A stretch of DNA of 64,000 bases from an uncultured Candidatus Actinomarina sp. (GTDB lineage Bacteria; Actinomycetota; Acidimicrobiia; Actinomarinales; Actinomarinaceae), in the NCBI GenBank assembly GCA_902628045.1, contig CACOLU010000001.1, forward strand, positions 10,672 to 74,671, given 5' to 3'. Of the stretch, positions 24,912 to 41,140 are shown one piece after another. How positions within the stretch are numbered: position 1 is the stretch's first letter; each line of letters begins with the position of its first letter. Under the pieces are notes generated by a model. That model saw only the letters and a list, made by a program, of their open reading frames with translations. It had not been told where the DNA came from and made no database searches. Made by a program: the position numbers and the translations under genes.

Positions 24912-25931
24912 TTAAGAAAGTTTTTTTAGTGCTTTATTTTTCAGCTCAGGCTTAACAAATCCAGCTTCAATAGTATTTTTCGTAATACCAAGAATATCTT
25001 TTTCATCTAATCCAAACGATTCAACTACATTATTTACTTCTTCTGACATAGTTATATCACTCATAAGCCGATTATCTGTATTTATAGTCACATTAAATCC
25101 TGCATTAAACAATTCACCAAAAGAGTGTTCTGAAACATCGGAGTATGCTCCGCACTGTACATTTGAGGTAGGGCAAATTTCTAAAGCAATATTGTTGTCG
25201 AACACATACTGGGCTGCAGTATTTTGAAAAGTGACTTCACCATTGTTAAAAGCTATATCATTGATGATTTGAGATCCATGCCCAACTCTTTTTGCCTTTG
25301 AGTCTATAACAACTTCTTTAATACCTTCTGCAACTTCCCAGTCAGCATGGAGGGTAACGTTTATATTGTTCTCAACAGCCAAGGAGCAAGCTTCACTGTG
25401 ATTAAGTACAGAAAAACCAACTTCAGGTCCTGCAAGATCAAAACCAATGACATCGTTATGTTCGATGCATAAATTTACAACCTCAAGAGAGTTTTGTTCT
25501 TGTCGCATCGCACATAATATAACTCCAGCAACAATATCATATTTTTCCATCCCATCTTTTATGCCATTAACTACTGAATCTACTACCTCACCAGTTGTTA
25601 AACCCTTAAAGGTATGAACAAGTGGAGCAAATCTTAGTTCTGCGTAAACAACCCCATCATTTGATAAGTCCTCTAATGCTTCTGTAGTTACTCTGTAAAT
25701 TGAGTCCTTGTCCTGCATTACGCCAATCGTGTGTTCCCATGCTTCTAGATTGATCGCAAGTGATTTATCAGGTTTTGGTTGGATCCATTTTTTTAATTCA
25801 TCATGGTTGGTTGATGGAAGGTTTGGATAATTTTGTTCATTTGCCAATTCGATTAAAGTTTCAACTCTTAACCCTCCATCTAAATGGTCATGGAGAACTG
25901 CCTTTGGAACTGTTTTTATCCAATCATGCAT
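24912..25931 (-). CDS. add: adenosine deaminase
   Basis: PKAVLHDHLDGGLR, HA...E, RVGHG and NTDN motifs. Confidence 0.9.
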   Translation of the reverse strand: MHDWIKTVPKAVLHDHLDGGLRVETLIELANEQNYPNLPSTNHDELKKWIQPKPDKSLAINLEAWEHTIGVMQDKDSIYRVTTEALEDLSNDGVVYAELRFAPLVHTFKGLTTGEVVDSVVNGIKDGMEKYDIVAGVILCAMRQEQNSLEVVNLCIEHNDVIGFDLAGPEVGFSVLNHSEACSLAVENNINVTLHADWEVAEGIKEVVIDSKAKRVGHGSQIINDIAFNNGEVTFQNTAAQYVFDNNIALEICPTSNVQCGAYSDVSEHSFGELFNAGFNVTINTDNRLMSDITMSEEVNNVVESFGLDEKDILGITKNTIEAGFVKPELKNKALKKLS

Positions 25932-25987: not shown

Positions 25988-27274
25988 ATGAGTAAAAAAG
26001 TTTACCTTCTCTGGTTTGGCCAAACTGTATCATGGACTGGATCTGCGATGTCTTTTTTTGCAATTGGTGTTTGGATATTTGAAACTACGGGAAAAGCAAG
26101 TGCTCTATCCACAATCTTATTTACAGTTGCTATAGTTGGAGTAATCACAGGACCTTTTGGTGGCGTTCTTGCAGATAGATTCCCAAGAAAAAAACTAATA
26201 ATTATTTTTGATTTGATAATTGCAGTACTGATGTGCATCATTTGTTACCTTGCATTAAATGGTATGTTGACTTTAACTCTTCTTATTCCATTTGCTTTAG
26301 CGTTTGGTATTTTTGAAATAGCACATTGGACAACGTGGAGTGCTTTTTTGGGTGATGTAGTTAAGAAAAATGAAGTGACTAAGATATCAGCTTTATTCGA
26401 AAGTGCAGAAGCCATATCTGTTCTTATTGGTCCAATAGGTGGTGCATTTATATACTCTTTTTTTGGATTAACAGGTGTAATACTTGTAGATATTGTGACT
26501 TGTTTGTTTGGCATCGCTACAATCACTTTTTTTAAAAGTAAAAAAGTGGAAACAAAAAGTAAGTTAAACTTCAAAAATGTTTATTTTGACCTAATTGAAG
26601 CTTATTACTGGCTAAAAAAACAAAAAGGCTTGCTTACTTTGGTGCTAATTTTTTCATTTGGTAATTTCTTATGGGGTTTTACTACCGTTTTGATTCCTCC
26701 AATGATTCTTAGTTTTACTGACGCAAGAGGCTTGGGCATTGTAGAGTCAAGTGTGGGATTTGCTTTTCTTTTAGGTTCAGTCATATCTTTGAAATTATCT
26801 GACTGGCTTCAAGGAAACCTAAAGATTGCAATATATTGCGGTCTTTTAGGAGGATTGAGTTTAATTTTTGGATCATTCAGACCAAGTATTTTACTTCTCT
26901 GTATTCACGGGATTATTGCCGGAGTAAGTGGCACTGTTCAATATACTATTTCGTCTGGTGCATGGTTAGCAATTACTAACGAGAGTATCAGAGGTAGGGC
27001 TTTGGCCTTGAGAGGGACAATTGCTCAGATGTTAAGACCACTCGGAGTTGTCATTGCAGGACCCTTGGGAGATTATTTAGAATTTTCTTATTACCCTGCT
27101 AATTCTGATTTTTTATCACTATTAGTTGGAAATGGTCCTGGAAGAGGTTATGCATTTTTATTTTTTATTGTAGGAGTTCTGTACATTTTTCTATGGGCTA
27201 TAAATTTTAATAATAAAAATTTATTAAGCCTTTCTGAGCAGGTAAGAGAAATCACAAGTAAGAATCATTTTTGA
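25988..27274 (+). CDS. MFS transporter
   Basis: 428 aa, 12 TM; GGVLADRFPRKK loop motif. Confidence 0.8.
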   Translation: MSKKVYLLWFGQTVSWTGSAMSFFAIGVWIFETTGKASALSTILFTVAIVGVITGPFGGVLADRFPRKKLIIIFDLIIAVLMCIICYLALNGMLTLTLLIPFALAFGIFEIAHWTTWSAFLGDVVKKNEVTKISALFESAEAISVLIGPIGGAFIYSFFGLTGVILVDIVTCLFGIATITFFKSKKVETKSKLNFKNVYFDLIEAYYWLKKQKGLLTLVLIFSFGNFLWGFTTVLIPPMILSFTDARGLGIVESSVGFAFLLGSVISLKLSDWLQGNLKIAIYCGLLGGLSLIFGSFRPSILLLCIHGIIAGVSGTVQYTISSGAWLAITNESIRGRALALRGTIAQMLRPLGVVIAGPLGDYLEFSYYPANSDFLSLLVGNGPGRGYAFLFFIVGVLYIFLWAINFNNKNLLSLSEQVREITSKNHF

Positions 27275-31399: not shown

Positions 31400-32374
31400 C
31401 TACTTTTCATTGAATTGCTCTTTTCTGTAAAAGTTGAAAAAACAAAGAGTAGCAAAAGAACATAAGATATGCCATATCATATGTGCTTGTATCCAAGAAT
31501 CAGGATTACAAGATGGGTCTTCTGGAACTCCTGTAAGCCATATTGTATAGGCAGAATAAAATGAGAGAAAACCAACCCAAAACCAGGGACTGTAAGATCT
31601 TTTTACCGTAACATTTTTTTCTATATTTGGTGTGAATGCTGGAAGAAAATAAAAAAGAACATGCCAGTTATCTAAAGGGTTTTGAATTACATCAATTAAT
31701 CTATTACCAAATAATTCTTGGACAATCAAAACTACAAATCCAGCTGATAAACGACCATAAAAATTTGGAAAACGAACCAACACTTCAGTTGATAGCCATA
31801 ATCCGATGCTTACTTCAAAAATATCTAGACCGATACCAAGACCTGAACCAAAGTTCCAATAAGCAATTGCAAAATAAATTAATATAGATAGGTAGATATA
31901 ATAAAAAGTTTTTTGAGTAAAATTTGAAAGCCTTTTTAGGTTATAAATCCATAAAATTAGTATGTAAGTCACCATACTTACATTATCTAACCACGCTCCA
32001 AACTTAGTGTGGGTTCCGTGCATAGCCATTGAACCAGGACCTAAGAAAGTTGAAGCTGAAGCATACAACAAAGCAAGGCTAGAAGAAGAAAACATCATTA
32101 TTCCTTTAGATGTTGTCGCATCTTTGCTTAATTTATAGAACATATATAGGCCAGTAACAACAAAGCCTAAATTTCCTAATGTATTTACGGGCTCTCTAAA
32201 AAATCCTCCACTTACTCTCTCACACCATCTAGAGATTTCACCAATAGCTTGTTCATTTTGAGCTGCAGGACCCCATCCGTTGTATCCAAAAATTACGAAT
32301 AGTAATGCAGTAAAAAATACAGAATATAATGCATATGAAAAATAACTTCTCTGGAGATTATTTTTGTGCTTCAT
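31400..32374 (-). CDS. ceramidase-like 7-TM hydrolase (alkaline ceramidase/CREST superfamily)
   Basis: CE...EPVNTLGNLGF, MHGTH...D and HMIWH motifs matching the Zn-ligand pattern of alkaline ceramidases. Confidence 0.55.
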   Translation of the reverse strand: MKHKNNLQRSYFSYALYSVFFTALLFVIFGYNGWGPAAQNEQAIGEISRWCERVSGGFFREPVNTLGNLGFVVTGLYMFYKLSKDATTSKGIMMFSSSSLALLYASASTFLGPGSMAMHGTHTKFGAWLDNVSMVTYILILWIYNLKRLSNFTQKTFYYIYLSILIYFAIAYWNFGSGLGIGLDIFEVSIGLWLSTEVLVRFPNFYGRLSAGFVVLIVQELFGNRLIDVIQNPLDNWHVLFYFLPAFTPNIEKNVTVKRSYSPWFWVGFLSFYSAYTIWLTGVPEDPSCNPDSWIQAHMIWHILCSFATLCFFNFYRKEQFNEK

Positions 32375-33583: not shown

Positions 33584-34009
33584 ATGATTAAAAAAATTTA
33601 TATTGCAGGACCTCTATTTAACAGGCATGAACAAATGTATTTGGAAGAAATTGCAAAAGAGCTTGAAGGGAATGGGTATGATTGTTTTCTTCCTCATAGA
33701 GATGCAGCGATCGGTATTGAAGAGTCTGAATTAAAAGGTACGGACATGTCTCAGGAGACCAAAGACACAATATTTAATAATGATTTAAACGCATTAGATG
33801 CTGCTGACTTAACCGTAGCTCTTTTAACTGGTCAAGATATTGATTCTGGAACTTCAGCAGAGATAGGACATACATTTGCTAAGGAAAAGCCAGTAATTGC
33901 TATCAATGCTAATGAGAGAAGGTATAGAAACTTATTCGTTGAAGGAATGTTGACTGTAACTGTTAATAATATTGATCAGTTAATTCCTGAAATTAAAAAA
34001 CTAAACTGA
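33584..34009 (+). CDS. nucleoside 2-deoxyribosyltransferase family protein
   Basis: IYIAGPLF...D.....D.GTSAEIG pattern of PF05014. Confidence 0.7.
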   Translation: MIKKIYIAGPLFNRHEQMYLEEIAKELEGNGYDCFLPHRDAAIGIEESELKGTDMSQETKDTIFNNDLNALDAADLTVALLTGQDIDSGTSAEIGHTFAKEKPVIAINANERRYRNLFVEGMLTVTVNNIDQLIPEIKKLN

Positions 34010-35245
34010 AACTAAAAGATTTTTAAACCCTCTTATACCAAAAGCACCCGTTCTTGTTGGTTCTTCAATTAAATTAAATTCTTTATTAAGTATATGGTCA
34101 AAAGAGACACCTAATTCTAGCCTTGCTAAATGAGTACCAATGCAAAAGTGTATTCCACCACCCCAACTACTATGATCCTTCATTTCTCTTTTGAAGTTGA
34201 TATTATCAGGATTTTCAAAAGCTCTAGGGTCTCTGTTAGCTGAACCTAATAACATTGCTACTTTTGAGCCCTTTTTAATATTATGTCCACCTATTTCAAC
34301 ATCTTCCAAAGCGTATCGTTGAAAGAACTGCAAGGGACTGTCGAACCTAATTAACTCTTCTACTACATCATTAATTTTTTCGGTTTCATTTTTAATATCC
34401 TCGAATGGTTTTTTTAGAGTTAGTAAGGCATGAAGCCCATTTCCTAATGTGTTGACAGTAGCTTCATGTCCTGCATTAAGAAGTAAGATAACTGTACAAA
34501 TAATCTGGTCATCAGTTAAGTAATTGTTGTCTTGTGACACTTGAGATAATCTTGTTATCATATCATCTTCAGGATTCTGCCTTCGTTTATTAAGTAAATC
34601 TTGAGTGTATTCAATAAATTGTTTTGCTGCTTCTTCAGCTTTATTAGCATTTTGTTCTGTCACCTCAAAGTCGTACATTTTTACGATTTTATGTGACCAA
34701 TCTAAAAATTCTAAATGATCACTTTCAGGAACCCCCAAAAGTTTTCCAATAATACTTACAGAATAAGGCTGTGCATAATCTTTTAACATATCAAATTCTG
34801 AACCTTTAACACTATTAAATATTTCTTCTGATTTTTGTTCCATAAATGGAACTAATTGCTGTACTGATCTTGGGAGAAAAGCTTTAGCAACCAACCCCCT
34901 AAGCTCTTTATGTAACTGACCTTCTAAATTTAAAAGAGAAAACTCTTCAGATTTCCAAAAATACTCATACGATCCAAATTGATCAGATCTTTTGTAAGCA
35001 GTTGAAGTGATTGGTATTTCCTGATTTCCGATTGATTCTTCAAACCCATCTATATGATTAAAGGTTGTACCAAATGATTTTGTTGATTGGATGCTTCGAA
35101 CATCTTGATATCTAGTAAAGAAGAAAAGGTCATTAATTTCATCCCAGAAAACCGGTGTGCTTTCCCTAAACTCTCCCATTTTTTCATATGGATTTTTTAT
35201 AAACTCTTCGTTTTCCGTGGGTAGATGTAGTTCAGGAATATTCAT
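34001..35245 (-). CDS. cytochrome P450
   Basis: AGHEAT (I-helix), ELIR (ExxR) and the heme loop WGGGIHFCIGTHLA. Confidence 0.9.
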   Translation of the reverse strand: MNIPELHLPTENEEFIKNPYEKMGEFRESTPVFWDEINDLFFFTRYQDVRSIQSTKSFGTTFNHIDGFEESIGNQEIPITSTAYKRSDQFGSYEYFWKSEEFSLLNLEGQLHKELRGLVAKAFLPRSVQQLVPFMEQKSEEIFNSVKGSEFDMLKDYAQPYSVSIIGKLLGVPESDHLEFLDWSHKIVKMYDFEVTEQNANKAEEAAKQFIEYTQDLLNKRRQNPEDDMITRLSQVSQDNNYLTDDQIICTVILLLNAGHEATVNTLGNGLHALLTLKKPFEDIKNETEKINDVVEELIRFDSPLQFFQRYALEDVEIGGHNIKKGSKVAMLLGSANRDPRAFENPDNINFKREMKDHSSWGGGIHFCIGTHLARLELGVSFDHILNKEFNLIEEPTRTGAFGIRGFKNLLVSV

Positions 35246-35335
35246 ATCATTAAAATATCACTTTTAATAGCAATTTCTACAAATTTATAAAAAATTTTAG
35301 TGACCTTTTATAGATGATTTGATATCATCTCAACC

Positions 35336-36106
35336 ATGACAGAAAAAAAATCAATGCTTGATGGAGAAAAACAATACCATATTGGACTTGCGCCGGGGGA
35401 TGTCGCTGATTTTGTAATTTTACCGGGAGATCCAGGAAGAGTAGAGTTTATTGCAGGACATTTTGATGAGGCAAAAGAAGTAGCATTCAACAGAGAATAT
35501 AAAACATTCACGGGTACATACAAAGGTAGACCAGTAAGTGTTATGTCAACAGGAATGGGATGTCCCTCAACAGCAATAGGTATAGAAGAGTTAGCAAACA
35601 TTGGGGTAAAAACAATGGTTCGACTTGGAACTTCTGGAGCTATGCAGGAACACACAAGAGTTGGAGATTTAGTAATAGCTAATGGTGCCGTAAGACAAGA
35701 AGGTACATCGATTGAGTACATGCCAATTGAGTACCCTGCTGTTGGATCTGCTGACATGATATTTGCACTGGAGCAAGCTGCAAAAGAAAAAGGAAGCACT
35801 TATCATATCGGTGTCGTTCAAACAAAAGATTCTTTTTATGGACAACATGACCCAGACTCAATGCCAGTATCTTACGACTTAAATCAAAAATGGGAGGCTT
35901 GGGTTCGAGGTGGCGTATTATGTTCTGAAATGGAAGTCTCTGCCTTATTTGTAGTTGGAAGTTATAGAAGAGTAAGAACAGGAGCCTTACTTGTAATTTA
36001 TGGTGACCAATCTAGAAAAGAAGCTTTAAATAAAGATACATATTTAGACGCTGTAAGTAATGCAACAAATATTATCTTAGAATCAAGCTTAACTATCGAT
36101 CAGTAG
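35336..36106 (+). CDS. udp: uridine phosphorylase (PNP/UDP family 1)
   Basis: HIGL..GD....ILPGDPGR, STGMGCPS, R.GT.G and SEME motifs. Confidence 0.75.
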   Translation: MTEKKSMLDGEKQYHIGLAPGDVADFVILPGDPGRVEFIAGHFDEAKEVAFNREYKTFTGTYKGRPVSVMSTGMGCPSTAIGIEELANIGVKTMVRLGTSGAMQEHTRVGDLVIANGAVRQEGTSIEYMPIEYPAVGSADMIFALEQAAKEKGSTYHIGVVQTKDSFYGQHDPDSMPVSYDLNQKWEAWVRGGVLCSEMEVSALFVVGSYRRVRTGALLVIYGDQSRKEALNKDTYLDAVSNATNIILESSLTIDQ

Positions 36107-36123
36107 ATATTTCGACTAAAAGA

Positions 36124-36990
36124 TTAGCTATAAGAAGACTGAGTACCTTTTTTTGTTACTGACTGACTAGCTTTTTGTACTGCTTTTTCTATACAAGTTT
36201 CTGGTGAGTTTGATTCTGATAATTCATATGCAAATGTCCCGATAAACGAATCACCAGCTCCAGTGGTGTCTATTGCATCTACATAAGGAGCATCAAAATA
36301 ATGTGTTTTATTTTTATCAACCAAAACAGCCCCTTTTTCACCTAAAGTAACAATTAAATTACAAGGCACTTCTTCATTAAATTTTAAAAAGTTTTCATCA
36401 TTAGGCTCCATGCCACTTATTAACTCAAATTCATTTTCATTTGGGATTAGCCAGCTAACATGCTCTAAAAATTCTCTTTCAAGTTTTTTTGCAGGAGCTG
36501 GGTTAAAAATTGTTGTGATAGAGTTATTTTTTGCAAATTTGAAAACTTCATGATTGACTTCCATGGGAATTTCACACTGTCCAACTAGAACAGAAATATT
36601 TCCGATTTTTTCCATCGATGATATTGCTTTTTGTGCATCTATTTCATTATTTGCACCAGGAATAACAATTATTCTATTTTGGCCTGTTGAGTCAACCCAT
36701 ATTGGTGCTACACCACTTGCACCTTTGACTAATTGTATATGATCAGTATTTACATTATTTGCTTCGTAGTTATTTATTGTCATCTCTTTATAAACATCAT
36801 CACCTAAACACGTAATCATATATACATCAGCTCCAAGGAGCCCAGCCATAACAGCTTGATTAGCTCCTTTTCCTCCAAAACCCATTTGAAATGAATCACC
36901 AAATAAAGTCTCTCCATCAGCAGGAATATTTTGAGTGTATGCTATTTGATCAATATTGGAACTTCCAATTACGCAAATTTTTGAACTCAT
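36124..36990 (-). CDS. rbsK: ribokinase
   Basis: GSSNIDQ, GGKGANQAV and the DTTGAGDSF anion-hole motif. Confidence 0.85.
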   Translation of the reverse strand: MSSKICVIGSSNIDQIAYTQNIPADGETLFGDSFQMGFGGKGANQAVMAGLLGADVYMITCLGDDVYKEMTINNYEANNVNTDHIQLVKGASGVAPIWVDSTGQNRIIVIPGANNEIDAQKAISSMEKIGNISVLVGQCEIPMEVNHEVFKFAKNNSITTIFNPAPAKKLEREFLEHVSWLIPNENEFELISGMEPNDENFLKFNEEVPCNLIVTLGEKGAVLVDKNKTHYFDAPYVDAIDTTGAGDSFIGTFAYELSESNSPETCIEKAVQKASQSVTKKGTQSSYS

Positions 36991-37038
36991 AAAACTAGTA
37001 TAAATTTTTTTTTACTATTTTCTACTAAGATTCTTTAT

Positions 37039-38019
37039 GTGAAAATAAATTGGGACTCCGAAGTCTTAAGTACTGTATCAAAAGCTGTAGATCAACTTGA
37101 ACATCTCTCAATAAATAAAGATTCAATAGAATCTGTTGCTGATTGGCTCGCTTATGAGGAGTTTCCTTTTCCAAGTATTGTTGCTGCAAGAGATGATGCG
37201 GATGATTTTATTAGAGCAACAATGTTTATGAACACTTTAAATTTTGCTTTTACAGATTTTGATAAATCTATTAAATATGAAATAAACGAAGATGGAAAAA
37301 TTCTCTCTGACAGCGAAGCAATGTATTTTCAAGTAAACAATGCAATAAGTTCAGGGATTAAATTAACAGATGGAAATGAAATGGCAAGTATTTCATTGCA
37401 GCAGCTAAATAATATTTTTGTTGGAAATATTGAAATGCCTATGTTGAAAGAACGAGTTGAGATATTAAACGAAGTAGGGCAAAAACTTGTAGATAGTTAT
37501 GAAGGTGATTGGATAAATTTTATAAACAATGGGCCAAAAAAACTGTATTCAAATGGAGATGGACTAATAGAAAGATTAGTCGATGAATTTCCAAGATTTA
37601 ATGATTCAGCACAGTTTAAAGGGAGCAATGTTAAATTTTATAAATTAGCTCAACTAACATTTTGGGTAATTCATGCAGAACTCTCTGGATCCAATTATTT
37701 CAAAATAGAAGATATGAACTCCATGACAGCTTTTGCTGACTACATAATCCCAGTTGCTTTAAATTTAAAAAAAATTACTACTTACACTTCTCAATTAGAC
37801 CAAAAAATTAAAAGTGGAGTATTAATAGAGCGAGATTCTGATGAAGAAATTGAAATTAGGATAGCATCAATTTTCACAACAGCCCTTTTGACAGAAAGCA
37901 TAAACGAGAGGCGACCTGAGGACAAAGCAATCATAATACCTCAACTAGATTATCGATTATGGAAAAATTATCATGCCACACATTATCCACACCACTTGAC
38001 ATACACAACCATGTATTAA
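37039..38019 (+). CDS. qng1: queuosine 5'-phosphate N-glycosylase/hydrolase (Qng1, DUF2419)
   Basis: GTG start. Collinear blocks match human QNG1 as I remember it: NTLNFAF (DTLNFSF), MPMLKERVEILNEVG (MPLVEERHRILNETG), FYKLAQL (FYKRAQI), FADYIIP (FADYRLP), LDYRLW (LDYYLW). Confidence 0.8.
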   Translation: MKINWDSEVLSTVSKAVDQLEHLSINKDSIESVADWLAYEEFPFPSIVAARDDADDFIRATMFMNTLNFAFTDFDKSIKYEINEDGKILSDSEAMYFQVNNAISSGIKLTDGNEMASISLQQLNNIFVGNIEMPMLKERVEILNEVGQKLVDSYEGDWINFINNGPKKLYSNGDGLIERLVDEFPRFNDSAQFKGSNVKFYKLAQLTFWVIHAELSGSNYFKIEDMNSMTAFADYIIPVALNLKKITTYTSQLDQKIKSGVLIERDSDEEIEIRIASIFTTALLTESINERRPEDKAIIIPQLDYRLWKNYHATHYPHHLTYTTMY

Positions 38020-38020
38020 G

Positions 38021-38677
38021 ATGAAAAAACTAGCAATCCTTCTTTTGCTTTTATCTTTTTGTGGCGGAACTGCAGAAACTGACTTGGATTCCTTTGCCGA
38101 GGAAATGCTTGTTGCTAAAGATGTTATGTCTGAAGTACAACAAGAAAGCCAAAAGAAATACAAAGAATCATTACCTGAGAAAATAGATAACTGCCTTAAA
38201 TTAGCAGATGCTATTGAAGAAGTGTTTGACACTATACAAATTGAGGCATATGAAAGTGAAATATATAGAACATATTCTGGCTTAGATGCCACAAAGCTTG
38301 ACTATGTGTATGAGGCATTAAGAATTAATAAAATAGGAATGGATGGTTTAGAAAAAATTATTGCAGAATATGAAATCAATAATGATTACCTAGCTGGATT
38401 AATTGAGGGATTTTACAATAATTTTGAAGATTCAAGAGAAGCAAATCAAGCATTAGAAAATCACCTGATATCCATAGATAACCAGTGGACAATTCAAGAA
38501 GAAGTTGACTGGTGGGAAGAAAATCAACAATACAGCATTAAAAACTGGAGAGATTCAGAAGAATATCTGCAATTAATGTCAGATAAGTCGCAAAACACTT
38601 TAAACCCCGATCCAGATTTTGTGGTTAGCGACAGTTACCCAAAAAATGTATTACGAAAGCATTGTGATAGTTTATAA
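38021..38677 (+). CDS. helical lipoprotein, unknown function
   Basis: MKKLAILLLLLSFC lipobox. Starts 1 nt after the qng1 stop. Confidence 0.6.
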   Translation: MKKLAILLLLLSFCGGTAETDLDSFAEEMLVAKDVMSEVQQESQKKYKESLPEKIDNCLKLADAIEEVFDTIQIEAYESEIYRTYSGLDATKLDYVYEALRINKIGMDGLEKIIAEYEINNDYLAGLIEGFYNNFEDSREANQALENHLISIDNQWTIQEEVDWWEENQQYSIKNWRDSEEYLQLMSDKSQNTLNPDPDFVVSDSYPKNVLRKHCDSL

Positions 38678-38698
38678 AATATTTGATACTCTAGTTCT

Positions 38699-39667
38699 AT
38701 GACAAAACGAAAATTTTTTATTGATACAGATACCGCATCAGATGATGCTGTTGCATTATTGATGGCTCTTGAATATCCAGATGTAGAGGTAATAGGAGTG
38801 AGCATAGTTTCCGGAAACATGCCGGTTGAACAAGGAAGTATTAATGCTAGGTACACGATTGAGCTCTGTGAAAAAAACGTACCAGTATATGTTGGGAGTG
38901 ACAAACCAATGGTGAAAAAAAGAGAACACGCAGACTGGTTTCATGGACCGGATGGTATGGGAAATATGAACTATCCAGCTCCTAAACTTAATGAACACGA
39001 TTCTGATTACATGGAAGTTTTACAATCTTTAGTCGAACAGTATCCGAATGAGATAACCCTTGTAACTCTTGGGCCGTTAACTAATATTGGCTATTTTGTA
39101 AAAAAGTATCCAGAATCCTTCAATAAGATTAAAAACATAGTCATTATGGGTGGAGCGGCCACAACAGTTGGGAATGTCACACCTGCGGCTGAATACAATA
39201 TTTGGTGTGACCCTGAAGCTGCTGACATTGTATTTGAGTCTGGACACCCTGATATAACAATAGTTGGTTGGGAGCTTTGTCGAGGAGGTGCAAATTTAAC
39301 TGAAGATGAAATGGAATTTGTTTATAGTTTTGAGACAAAAAAAGGAGACTTCACAATAGATTGTAACAAACATGCTCTCGATTCAAGCCAGAATTGGTTG
39401 GGTGATCCAGGATTAGGATTACCAGACCCAGTAGCCATGGCAGTAGCTCTAAATGATGATGTTGTGTTAAAGCAAGATCGACATCATGTAAAAATTGTAG
39501 TGGATGGACCAGCTAGAGGTATGACAATTGTAGATGAGCTAAATGTTGGTGAAAGCGACCCTCATATAGATGAGTACTGGTCGCATACAACAAAAAATAT
39601 CAATGTTATTTGGGAAATTGACAATAACGAATGGAAAGAGACGCTCTACAAGACTTTAAAAAATTAG
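38699..39667 (+). CDS. ribonucleoside hydrolase (IunH/RihA family)
   Basis: N-terminal DTDTASDDAVAL (DXDXXXDD), plus NI..DP.AA and W motifs. Confidence 0.85.
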   Translation: MTKRKFFIDTDTASDDAVALLMALEYPDVEVIGVSIVSGNMPVEQGSINARYTIELCEKNVPVYVGSDKPMVKKREHADWFHGPDGMGNMNYPAPKLNEHDSDYMEVLQSLVEQYPNEITLVTLGPLTNIGYFVKKYPESFNKIKNIVIMGGAATTVGNVTPAAEYNIWCDPEAADIVFESGHPDITIVGWELCRGGANLTEDEMEFVYSFETKKGDFTIDCNKHALDSSQNWLGDPGLGLPDPVAMAVALNDDVVLKQDRHHVKIVVDGPARGMTIVDELNVGESDPHIDEYWSHTTKNINVIWEIDNNEWKETLYKTLKN

Positions 39668-40266
39668 TCTTCTTGCCAAGTTTTTTCTAGAAACCCTTTT
39701 CTTCCACTAGCTTGAGCGTACATTTTATAACGCATGCTTTGTTTTTTATAAAAATCTTGATGATACTCTTCAGCAATATAGAACTCTGGAGCAGCTGAAA
39801 TTGCAGTCACGATTGGTTTACTAAATTTTCCTGATTCATCTAGTTCAACTTTTGATTTCTCAGCTAAGTTCTTTTGTTCTTCGTCAACAGTAAAAATCTC
39901 AGTTCTGTATTGGGAACCAACATCTGCAAATTGATAATTTAATGCAGTTGGGTCTATGTTTCTCCAGAACACTTCTAACAATTCCTCATATGTTACTACT
40001 TCTGGGTCAAACAATATTTCTACAACTTCTGCATGACCTGTCTCCCCAGTCGTTACTTCTTCGTAAGTAGGATTTTCTACGGTACCACCCATATAACCAG
40101 AGGTAGCTCCAATAACTCCCTCAATAGCTTCAAATGGAGGTTCCATACACCAAAAACAACCACCAGCAAAATAAGCTTTTTGATATTTATCGTCCACTAT
40201 TTCTACACTTTCTATTGTTGTACATGAAACAAATAATAGTAATAATAAAACTTTTACTGTTTTCAT
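39664..40266 (-). CDS. msrA: peptide-methionine (S)-S-oxide reductase MsrA with lipoprotein signal peptide
   Basis: GGCFWCME catalytic motif, preceded by MKTVKVLLLLLFVSC lipobox. Confidence 0.9.
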   Translation of the reverse strand: MKTVKVLLLLLFVSCTTIESVEIVDDKYQKAYFAGGCFWCMEPPFEAIEGVIGATSGYMGGTVENPTYEEVTTGETGHAEVVEILFDPEVVTYEELLEVFWRNIDPTALNYQFADVGSQYRTEIFTVDEEQKNLAEKSKVELDESGKFSKPIVTAISAAPEFYIAEEYHQDFYKKQSMRYKMYAQASGRKGFLEKTWQED

Positions 40267-40328
40267 ATTTTAAATATTAAACGACGATGAAAAGATTAAT
40301 AAATTTTATCAACAAATTATATTATTTT

Positions 40329-40994
40329 TTAAAATTGACCTTCTAAAGTCCATTCAAGTTTTGGTCTAATTAAATATATTGCTGGCAAACTAACTAATGA
40401 GCTTATTAGTTTTATGCCAACCATAGATGCAAATATTGACCATACAACACTAATTGGTATTAACCCATAAAAGGCTATAAAAGAAAATACTAGTGAATCA
40501 ATAGGGGACGAAATAGCATTTGAGGACAAAACTCTTCCCCATTGATACTTATATTTAAATTTATTTACCCATCTTTGGTACACATAAGTATCTATTAACT
40601 CTGCAATTAACATAGCAATAATTGATGCAGTCACAATTCTCCATTGAGGCCCTAAAACTGTTGACCATTCTGTTTGTGGGCCAACCTCCATATCAGCAGG
40701 AGCTGTTGAGACCCACCAAAAATATACAACCATTAAAATATTTACTCCGGCTCCAGTAAAAATAGTAGCTCGTGCCGTTTTTGTTCCACCCACCTTGTGA
40801 ATGAGGTCTCTTAAAGTAAACGTAAGAGGGTAAATTAATGTACCAGCATCTATAGAAAATCCTGCAAAAATCACAATTCTAAGTGATGCGATATTTGCTA
40901 TTAAAGTACAAGCAAGATATAAACCAACAACAAAAACAAGCACACCCAACCATGCACTTGAATCTTTACTTGAGATAATATTGTCTTTATTCAC
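40329..40994 (-). CDS. yhhQ: queuosine-precursor transporter (YhhQ/DUF165, VUT family)
   Basis: YPLTFTLRDLIHKVGG and polytopic TM pattern. I prefer the GTG at 40994, preceded by GAGGAG, over the ATG at 41048. Confidence 0.75.
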   Translation of the reverse strand: MNKDNIISSKDSSAWLGVLVFVVGLYLACTLIANIASLRIVIFAGFSIDAGTLIYPLTFTLRDLIHKVGGTKTARATIFTGAGVNILMVVYFWWVSTAPADMEVGPQTEWSTVLGPQWRIVTASIIAMLIAELIDTYVYQRWVNKFKYKYQWGRVLSSNAISSPIDSLVFSFIAFYGLIPISVVWSIFASMVGIKLISSLVSLPAIYLIRPKLEWTLEGQF

Positions 40995-41140
40995 TACTTC
41001 TCCTCGTATCAATTGGTTTAATTTAAGTAAACATATATTACACTTCATATGAAATTTGAAAAAATTAAAAAAGCTTTTTAAAAAAATTTTTAAGTTTTAT
41101 AATTAAATTAATCCTTCGACTTTTAAAGCGGAGAGAGGAA

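Follow-up and report, generated by a model that had tools for sequence, protein, structure and literature searches.

The window analysed here is a stretch of 64,000 nucleotides (nt) from contig CACOLU010000001.1 (positions 10,672 to 74,671; assembly GCA_902628045.1), and the subject is a group of nucleoside and queuosine (Q) salvage genes within it, arranged around qng1. The source assembly is a single-cell genome (SAG) of 882 kb in 33 contigs, estimated to be 70.5% complete. An earlier interpretation made from the letters alone, hereafter the sequence-only reading, had placed these genes in an actinobacterial context; the locus was 100% identical to 'uncultured Candidatus Actinomarina sp. AH-287-A16', which bears this out despite a G+C content of 33% (30-39% across the window). 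Profile searches of the window proteins recovered every named nucleoside and queuosine gene in its expected place, along with two genes of the span absent from that reading, the P450 (34001-35245) and MsrA (39664-40266). The genes of the span are as follows:

33584-34009, + strand: nucleoside 2-deoxyribosyltransferase (NDT)-family gene, ndt, Nuc_deoxyrib_tr, 141 amino acids (PF05014, 79 bits)
34001-35245, - strand: cytochrome P450 (PF00067, 98 bits)
35336-36106, + strand: uridine phosphorylase, udp (TIGR01718, 289 bits; cut-off 280)
36124-36990, - strand: ribokinase, PfkB family, rbsK, divergent from qng1 (TIGR02152, 305 bits; cut-off 300)
37039-38019, + strand: qng1, DUF2419/Q_salvage, 326 amino acids (PF10343, 177 bits)
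38021-38677, + strand: lipoprotein gene, an open reading frame (ORF) of 218 amino acids without family (lipobox LLSFC)
38699-39667, + strand: nucleoside hydrolase (NH), IU_nuc_hydro, 322 amino acids, cytoplasmic (PF01156, 283 bits)
39664-40266, - strand: MsrA (PF01625, 215 bits)
40329-41048, - strand: Vut_1/YhhQ, QPTR family (PF02592, 132.6 bits, cut-off 27.2; TIGR00697, 102.3 bits, cut-off 50.95)

The qng1, lipoprotein and hydrolase genes do form a tight operon, with 1 nt between the first two and 21 nt between the second and third. The hydrolase gene and msrA converge with a 4-nt overlap, and yhhQ and msrA share the - orientation across a 62-bp gap, with msrA downstream. A promoter and terminator scan at the locus gave signals no better than those of shuffled sequence. 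Our preferred interpretation of the locus is a cassette for queuosine-family salvage that varies from strain to strain and is carried by a salvage-only organism, a real variant of known Q salvage.

The match of Qng1 to PF10343 (cut-off 25 bits) covered profile positions 9-284 of 285, and the protein aligned end to end with the S. thermophilus Qng1 (StQng1) structures 7u07 and 7uk3 (profile E = 2e-58, residues 9-326). The catalytic and substrate-binding roles of the StQng1 residues have been demonstrated (PMC9881137). The HhH catalytic pair is kept (D234 and K202, equivalent to StQng1 D231 and K199), as are the residues that recognize 7-deazaguanine (D304, W308 and L206; StQng1 D298, W302 and I203), those that bind ribose (F71, Y235, E270 and H319; StQng1 F75, Y232, E267 and H316) and the C-terminal tyrosine (Y326; StQng1 Y323). 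These residues were invariant in 82 relatives, bar F71 (81/82) and one sequence with a C-terminal gap. The sequence-only reading had depended on the DUF2419 catalytic residues being present on alignment, and all of them are intact; the protein looks like a functional HhH-type N-glycosidase, predicted to release the 7-deazaguanine base from queuosine 5'-phosphate.

The aromatic pocket that accommodates the cyclopentenediol in StQng1 (W48, H53, Y93, W94 and W299) is not preserved in the same way. Y93 and W94 belong to a Y-[DS]-G-Y-W motif common to S. thermophilus and human QNG1, which aligned without gaps to L-S-D-S-E-A in the window protein, so that Y93-W94 became E93-A94; in all 82 relatives column 93 was E, D or L and column 94 was A or G. 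Nothing in the window protein corresponds to the W48...H53 element, with a less certain alignment register towards the N-terminus; the F-x-F-W sequence reads F-A-F-T, and StQng1 W299 corresponds to Y305, the same residue as in the human enzyme. By alignment, the window Qng1 belongs to a widespread, uncharacterised subfamily in which the pocket for the 7-substituent has been remodelled, and this remodelling would change either the substrate or only the mode of binding.

A tgt gene, on which the sequence-only reading also depended, was present in the window genome (401 bits; cut-off 307), with queA immediately upstream, whereas QueC, QueD, QueF, QueG and QueH were not found in this roughly 70% complete SAG. 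In view of this incompleteness, the survey was extended to 36 genomes from the genus and 24 from the class. Within the genus, tgt was found in 33/36 genomes and a full-length QueG-like gene (160-189 bits) in 32/36; QueC was found in none of the 36, and QueF in a single genome, the most contaminated bin of the set. In all 21 loci examined, queA lay directly upstream of tgt. The lack of queG in the SAG is attributable to an assembly break at a contig end: the match of the window genome to a close relative of the same genus (G004; 95% DNA identity across the matched stretch) stops 3 nt before the position of queG in the latter. The near-universality of tgt and the QueG-like gene, together with the counts for QueC and QueF, identifies the genus as a salvage-only Q auxotroph. 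The choice between salvage and de novo synthesis, for which the sequence-only reading had proposed a genome search, is thereby decided for preQ1-type salvage: tgt and queA are present in the genome, QueC, QueD and QueF were not found in it, and the QueG-like gene is present in the genus. Actinomarina is a Q-precursor auxotroph that retains TGT, QueA and QueG and cannot make preQ0 or preQ1. Qng1 occurred in 23/36 genus genomes and YhhQ in 5/36 other genus genomes, all of them Qng1-positive. The suggestion that such a pathway would be atypical of the lineage did not hold; a sample of 22 other genera of the class included 12 with tgt, and close Qng1 relatives were common in Acidimicrobiia, Nanopelagicales and Nitriliruptoraceae.

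When the window proteins were compared with related loci by tblastn, a fixed backbone emerged, o324-o388-P450-udp-rbsK-(site 1)-msrA-(site 2)-panB, in which msrA bounds the variable site on its right. Where Qng1 is absent, 11 bp separate rbsK from the adjoining msrA. Site 1 holds a lone qng1 in many genomes and qng1-lipoprotein-NH in the window clade, whose yhhQ stands at site 2 and whose ndt is next to the P450; the L015/L026 clade has qng1-NH2-MFS-lipoprotein-EamA-NH without yhhQ. Since udp, rbsK and the P450 are kept across Qng1-negative loci, they are backbone genes, and the placing of udp and rbsK within a Q island has to be withdrawn. The same applies to ndt, as the NDT family was present in 33/36 genus genomes; its insertion at the P450 site is found in the window clade and in an L015-type clade, and the window protein, whose best solved relatives are NDTs, keeps the D-S-G-T-S-A-E-I-G motif. 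What remains of the proposed island, namely qng1, the lipoprotein gene, the NH gene and yhhQ, is a graded accessory cassette, and its clustering was upheld across Actinomarina loci.

Several side observations concern these loci. In yhhQ-less Actinomarina, the msrA-panB gap (L020:5016-6363, L021:5099-6400, L017:7613-8949) holds a conserved pair of ORFs without Pfam match, encoding a 211-residue soluble protein and a 205-residue multi-pass membrane protein, the latter in the position and orientation of the window yhhQ; it was considered as a divergent YhhQ and rejected for want of similarity (E = 0.058). Bin G032 has both Qng1 and the locus P450 in triplicate, on different contigs, and is probably a strain mixture despite a contamination estimate of 2%. 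Five short contigs (L012, L057, L060, L067 and L111) from metagenome-assembled genomes (MAGs) labelled Flavobacteriales, Crocinitomicaceae, Gammaproteobacteria, Rickettsiales and Chitinophagales show the Actinomarina rbsK-qng1-NH-msrA synteny; their Qng1 proteins are 51-77% identical to that of the window, and they are probably mis-binned Actinomarina contigs. The N-terminus of the window MsrA resembles a lipoprotein signal (MKTVKVLLLLLFVSC), pointing to export of this methionine sulfoxide reductase.

The hydrolase keeps the Ca-binding DxDxxxDD motif of NHs (DTDTASDD, residues 9-16) and scored below every Rih/UriH equivalog cut-off; its best solved relatives are generic IunH, NRH and RihA enzymes. 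Among the 36 genus genomes, the window-type paralogue (272-287 bits) occurred only in Qng1-positive ones, and on the Qng1-bearing contig in all but one case (G002, with fragmentary contigs), whereas other NH copies were present in 36/36. In a tree of context-labelled NHs the window type formed a clade of its own with 100/100 support. A kinship to QueK, which the sequence-only reading had raised, could not be shown; the tree makes this enzyme a lineage-specific NH paralogue, and its neighbours are qng1, the lipoprotein gene, msrA and yhhQ, in place of the queT-family transporter gene that typifies QueK clusters (PMC12632869). We propose, from sequence and context, that the island NH cleaves queuosine nucleoside.

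The lipoprotein had no Pfam or NCBIfam match, and its family is restricted to Actinomarina. A lipobox was present in 9/9 homologues, C58 and C215 were invariant and the mature domains were 65-89% identical; its AlphaFold model is all-helical (pLDDT 66), and a fold search with this moderate-confidence model returned no match below E = 1. It is possibly an extracytoplasmic capture or binding component. YhhQ fell below the cut-off of the E. coli-type equivalog NF008406 (32.5 bits; cut-off 252). The QPTR family has been divided into substrate classes (preQ0/preQ1 or queuine) by similarity networks and complementation (PMC11570991). A 50%-identical YhhQ homologue is encoded in a PfkB-NH-YhhQ-BmpABC operon of a genome from another family (G042), which has this operon yet lacks Qng1.

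Taken together, we consider the locus to be a variable chromosomal site holding an accessory cassette for scavenging queuosine-family compounds, with a probability of roughly 60%. This reading is built on observed gene identities, intact catalytic residues, the salvage-only complement, the behaviour of the cassette and recurrent neighbourhoods; the substrates, the direction of transport and the role of the lipoprotein in the following scheme are sequence-based predictions. YhhQ would import free 7-deazaguanine base (preQ1 and/or queuine), with the surface lipoprotein perhaps assisting in substrate capture, and queuosine nucleoside may enter through the Bmp-type ABC importer of the genome. Inside the cell, Qng1 would cleave queuosine 5'-phosphate to queuine and ribose 5-phosphate, the island NH would cleave queuosine nucleoside to queuine and ribose, and the neighbouring ribokinase would phosphorylate the released ribose. 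The base would then reach tRNA by way of TGT, with QueA and QueG completing any inserted preQ1.

Several points weigh against this reading. The genome is only about 70% complete; no preQ1 or other riboswitch was found near yhhQ or qng1; 4/6 cyclopentenediol-pocket residues of the solved Qng1 enzymes are not conserved; and a ribokinase is the best-conserved neighbour of qng1, an association equally compatible with plain ribose harvesting. A further point is the specificity of TGT. Published signatures separate preQ1-type (GGLAVG) from queuine-type (GG[LS][AS]G) pockets (PMC11570991), and GGLAIGE is the pocket of the window-genome TGT and of each of the 19 Actinomarina TGTs examined, from Qng1-positive and Qng1-negative genomes alike; by the published signature preQ1, and not queuine, is therefore its predicted substrate. 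No gene for the conversion of queuine to preQ1 was identified, and no island gene encodes a radical-SAM enzyme; QueL itself was not searched for. The sequence-only proposal that this cell scavenges Q-family bases thus stands in part. The salvage-only complement, the intact Qng1 and the accessory cassette speak for scavenging, whereas the implied route from Qng1 through queuine to TGT is contradicted by the preQ1-type pocket in 19/19 TGTs, the constant adjacency of queA and the QueG-like gene of the genus.

Any use of queuine by Actinomarina is puzzling, given a TGT pocket of the preQ1 type. The GGLAIGE pocket, the adjacent queA and the QueG-like gene in 32/36 genus genomes do not correspond to direct queuine salvage of the Chlamydia type; canonical TGT, QueA and a hydrolase predicted to release queuine do correspond to indirect salvage of the Clostridioides difficile type. 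By analogy with known systems, either a QueL analogue would convert queuine to preQ1, or TGT would accept queuine inefficiently, as in Bartonella henselae. A broader proposal, which we put forward tentatively and think somewhat less probable than its negation, is that Actinomarina and many Acidimicrobiia and Acidobacteriota combine a queuine-releasing Qng1 with a strictly preQ1-type TGT-QueA-QueG pathway, the undiscovered step being either an aerobic, non-radical-SAM enzyme that converts queuine to preQ1 or a pocket-remodelled Qng1 that releases another base. The P450 (34001-35245) was considered as an oxidative queuine-to-preQ1 enzyme and rejected, being present in 9/13 Qng1-negative genus genomes and in 1/46 non-Actinomarina qng1 loci; its proximity to qng1 in a single other case (G055) is probably due to chance.

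A Qng1 profile scan returned 583 stretches with relatives, and the wider context was drawn from the best 80 of the 583, which came from Actinomarina, many Acidimicrobiia (including sponge symbionts), Nanopelagicales, Nitriliruptoraceae, Chloroflexia and Acidobacteriota. Neighbours were counted at 46 loci whose Qng1 was less than 50% identical to that of the window, loci that are mutually related, so that the figures are not independent counts. A ribokinase-like PfkB gene lay within 5 kb of qng1 at 20 of them and within 400 bp at 15; the corresponding figures were 16 and 0 for NHs, 14 and 0 for Bmp/PnrA ABC importers, 13 and 9 for MFS transporters, and 7 and 7 for NDT-like genes, which abut qng1 in Chloroflexia and Nanopelagicales. 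At Actinomarinales-like loci the ribokinase-like gene stood at most 400 bp from qng1 in 32/34 cases. Recurrent arrangements were ABC(Bmp)-qng1-MFS-NH in Acidimicrobiia, ABC-qng1-ndt-MFS-NH in Nanopelagicales and NH..qng1..NH in Acidobacteriota. In the NH tree, the qng1-linked hydrolases of Actinomarina, Acidimicrobiia, Nanopelagicales and Acidobacteriota fell into separate clades, which rules out a single orthologous clade of such enzymes; NHs were therefore recruited beside qng1 independently. According to PMC11130926, MFS_1, EamA and HlyIII proteins are published candidates for Q-precursor transport, encoded in clusters with tgt, qng1 or queK; the supplementary tables of that paper list PfkB and NH neighbours, which the main-text passages searched do not mention. 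The PfkB gene adjacent to qng1 was also considered as the missing queuosine kinase and rejected: all copies examined were best classified as ribokinases (TIGR02152, 263-334 bits), and the gene belongs to the backbone in Qng1-negative genomes.

Ribokinase is the most constant partner of qng1, inside and outside Actinomarinales, which fits generic nucleoside catabolism. On that view ribose, ribose 5-phosphate and bases are harvested, Qng1 clears queuosine nucleotides that ordinary enzymes cannot cleave, queuine is not reused, and the Q of tRNA derives from imported preQ1 only. The presence of udp, rbsK, the NDT family and other NH copies regardless of Qng1 fits such a role, as does a TGT that is preQ1-type and not co-adapted to Qng1, and broad nucleoside use is indicated by the adenosine deaminase (described below) and by a second NH-BmpABC operon. 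In the latter, the second NH gene of the window genome (G000:C4:30853-31740; L142:4845-8583) precedes those for a Bmp/PnrA-type substrate-binding protein and an ABC ATPase, together likely a general nucleoside uptake and hydrolysis operon. We nevertheless regard the catabolic explanation as unlikely: YhhQ, a member of a Q-precursor transporter family, co-varies with the cassette, and a genome of about 1.2 Mb would hardly be expected to keep an accessory enzyme for the sole purpose of clearing a trace nucleotide. Nor would a purely catabolic role predict the pathway complement of other carriers; among 15 diverse genomes with this Qng1 subfamily, QueC was found in 0/15 and tgt in 14/15. The lack of QueC makes every one of these carriers an auxotroph, which speaks for the salvage reading.

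The same 15 genomes bear on the nature of the Qng1 product. Nine combined queA with a Val-retaining TGT pocket (Acidimicrobiia, Acidobacteriota and one MAG labelled Gammaproteobacteria), and a tenth, a Nitriliruptoraceae MAG, gave a partial queA match only and no tgt match; two Chloroflexia had a GGLAG TGT, and three Nanopelagicales a non-canonical GGALD TGT, all five without queA. The TGTs of the freshwater Nanopelagicales (L131, L132 and L134) have the pocket G-M-G-G-A-L-D-K, which is neither GGLAVG nor GG[LS][AS]G, and their genomes carry an ABC-qng1-ndt-MFS-NH-udp cluster. Because the Chloroflexia carriers have a queuine-type TGT and no queA, the product of the Qng1 subfamily is probably queuine.

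That conclusion argues against an alternative prompted by the remodelled pocket, in which this subfamily would act on another 7-deazaguanine nucleotide, such as preQ1- or preQ0-(deoxy)ribonucleotides from tRNA or phage DNA, and directly release a base suited to a preQ1-type TGT. Such a substrate would account for the change of Y93-W94 to E/D/L-A/G in all 82 relatives, the missing W48...H53 element and the F-A-F-T sequence; most carriers, moreover, pair queA with a Val- or Ile-retaining TGT, an Acidobacteriota transporter encoded beside qng1 moves preQ0/preQ1 and not Q (PMC11130926), and genes of the NDT family, whose members act on deoxynucleosides, lie immediately beside qng1 in three lineages. 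The Chloroflexia carriers, and the Nanopelagicales with their non-canonical TGT and no queA, fit a queuine product instead; preQ0 would be useless to Actinomarina, which has no QueF, an abundant environmental source of preQ1 nucleotides is not established, and the pocket argument comes from an alignment only. We regard this alternative as improbable, more so than generic catabolism, and retain the salvage cassette for queuosine-family compounds as the preferred reading.

Outside the cassette, three further features of the window are relevant:

24912-25931, - strand: adenosine deaminase (PF00962, 245 bits)
25988-27274, + strand: MFS transporter, divergently paired with the adenosine deaminase (MFS_1, 94 bits)
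31400-32374, - strand: protein of 324 amino acids with seven transmembrane segments (weak Ceramidase, 33.5 bits, and HlyIII, 20.7 bits, matches)

The adenosine deaminase lies at 24.9 kb, as the sequence-only reading had noted, and with its MFS partner it represents general purine nucleoside salvage outside the island; the transporter may import a nucleoside or base. The gene for the 324-residue protein belongs to the backbone throughout the genus. Since a PF03006 protein from Bifidobacterium breve has been shown to transport preQ0/preQ1 (PMC11130926), the 324-residue protein is a candidate for the missing preQ1 importer of the 31/36 genus genomes that lack YhhQ.

The reuse of queuine by bacteria with a preQ1-only TGT is an acknowledged open question, that of the missing QueL analogue, to which this locus adds an independent, aerobic and Qng1-based case. 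Actinomarina, among the most abundant and streamlined marine actinobacteria, is a Q-precursor auxotroph and therefore depends on dissolved 7-deazaguanines from other microbes, compounds that behave like a cross-fed vitamin of the ocean, with the salvage kit as a strain-variable accessory trait. New leads are the Qng1 subfamily with its altered pocket and the pairing of qng1 with ribokinase, NHs and importers, some contexts of which may already be described. If the broader proposal is true, closely related single-cell genomes, which carry the cassette to differing extents or not at all, provide a direct comparative handle for finding the undiscovered step.

Among known systems, the closest parallel in enzyme family is that of StQng1 and human QNG1 (Hung et al. 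2023, PMC9881137). The proteins share a Pfam family and an end-to-end alignment, and the hosts lack de novo Q synthesis; Asp/Lys of the HhH motif, Asp/Trp for deazaguanine binding, Phe/Tyr for ribose binding and the Tyr at the C-terminus are conserved. In Actinomarina, however, W48, H53, Y93 and W94 are replaced, qng1 stands in an operon with a lipoprotein and an NH gene beside a ribokinase, and TGT is of the preQ1 type and accompanied by queA and queG, whereas direct queuine users have a queuine-accepting TGT.

Indirect queuine salvage in C. difficile (Yuan et al. 2019, as summarised in PMC11130926 and PMC12632869) employs the QueK hydrolase, the QueL queuine lyase and a canonical TGT. Actinomarina resembles it in clustering an NH-family hydrolase with a transporter, in a genome without queDECF and with canonical TGT and QueA; with these, queuine would need conversion to preQ1, as in C. 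difficile. The transporter, though, is YhhQ (MFS or EamA in sister lineages) and not QueT, Qng1 is present in addition, the NH appears from the tree to be a lineage-specific paralogue, and no QueL was identified, though no search for it was made. A lyase of the oxygen-sensitive radical-SAM kind is a less obvious answer for this host, an aerobic marine oligotroph.

Bartonella henselae is a salvage-only organism whose TGT has a GGLAVG-type pocket and whose YhhQ/QPTR transporter prefers preQ1 yet can process queuine when its concentration is high (PMC11570991); it shares the salvage-only state and the GGLAVG-type pocket with Actinomarina and is a precedent for inefficient direct use of queuine. 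It lacks queA, queG, Qng1 and the NH cassette, whereas Actinomarina keeps queA and queG and has Ile in place of Val in the pocket. The streptococcal QueK paradox (2025; bioRxiv 10.1101/2025.10.13.681863, PMC12632869) comprises a queuine-releasing hydrolase, a canonical TGT and QueA without QueL, and its authors consider that an undiscovered QueL replacement may exist. The Actinomarina locus repeats this combination, with a hydrolase predicted to release queuine, QueA always present, a canonical preQ1-type TGT and no QueL identified. The streptococcal case involves QueK beside QueT in host-associated Firmicutes; here Qng1 and an NH occur with YhhQ, MFS or EamA in free-living marine Actinomycetota, and the pairing of Qng1 with a preQ1-type TGT recurs in Acidimicrobiia and Acidobacteriota.

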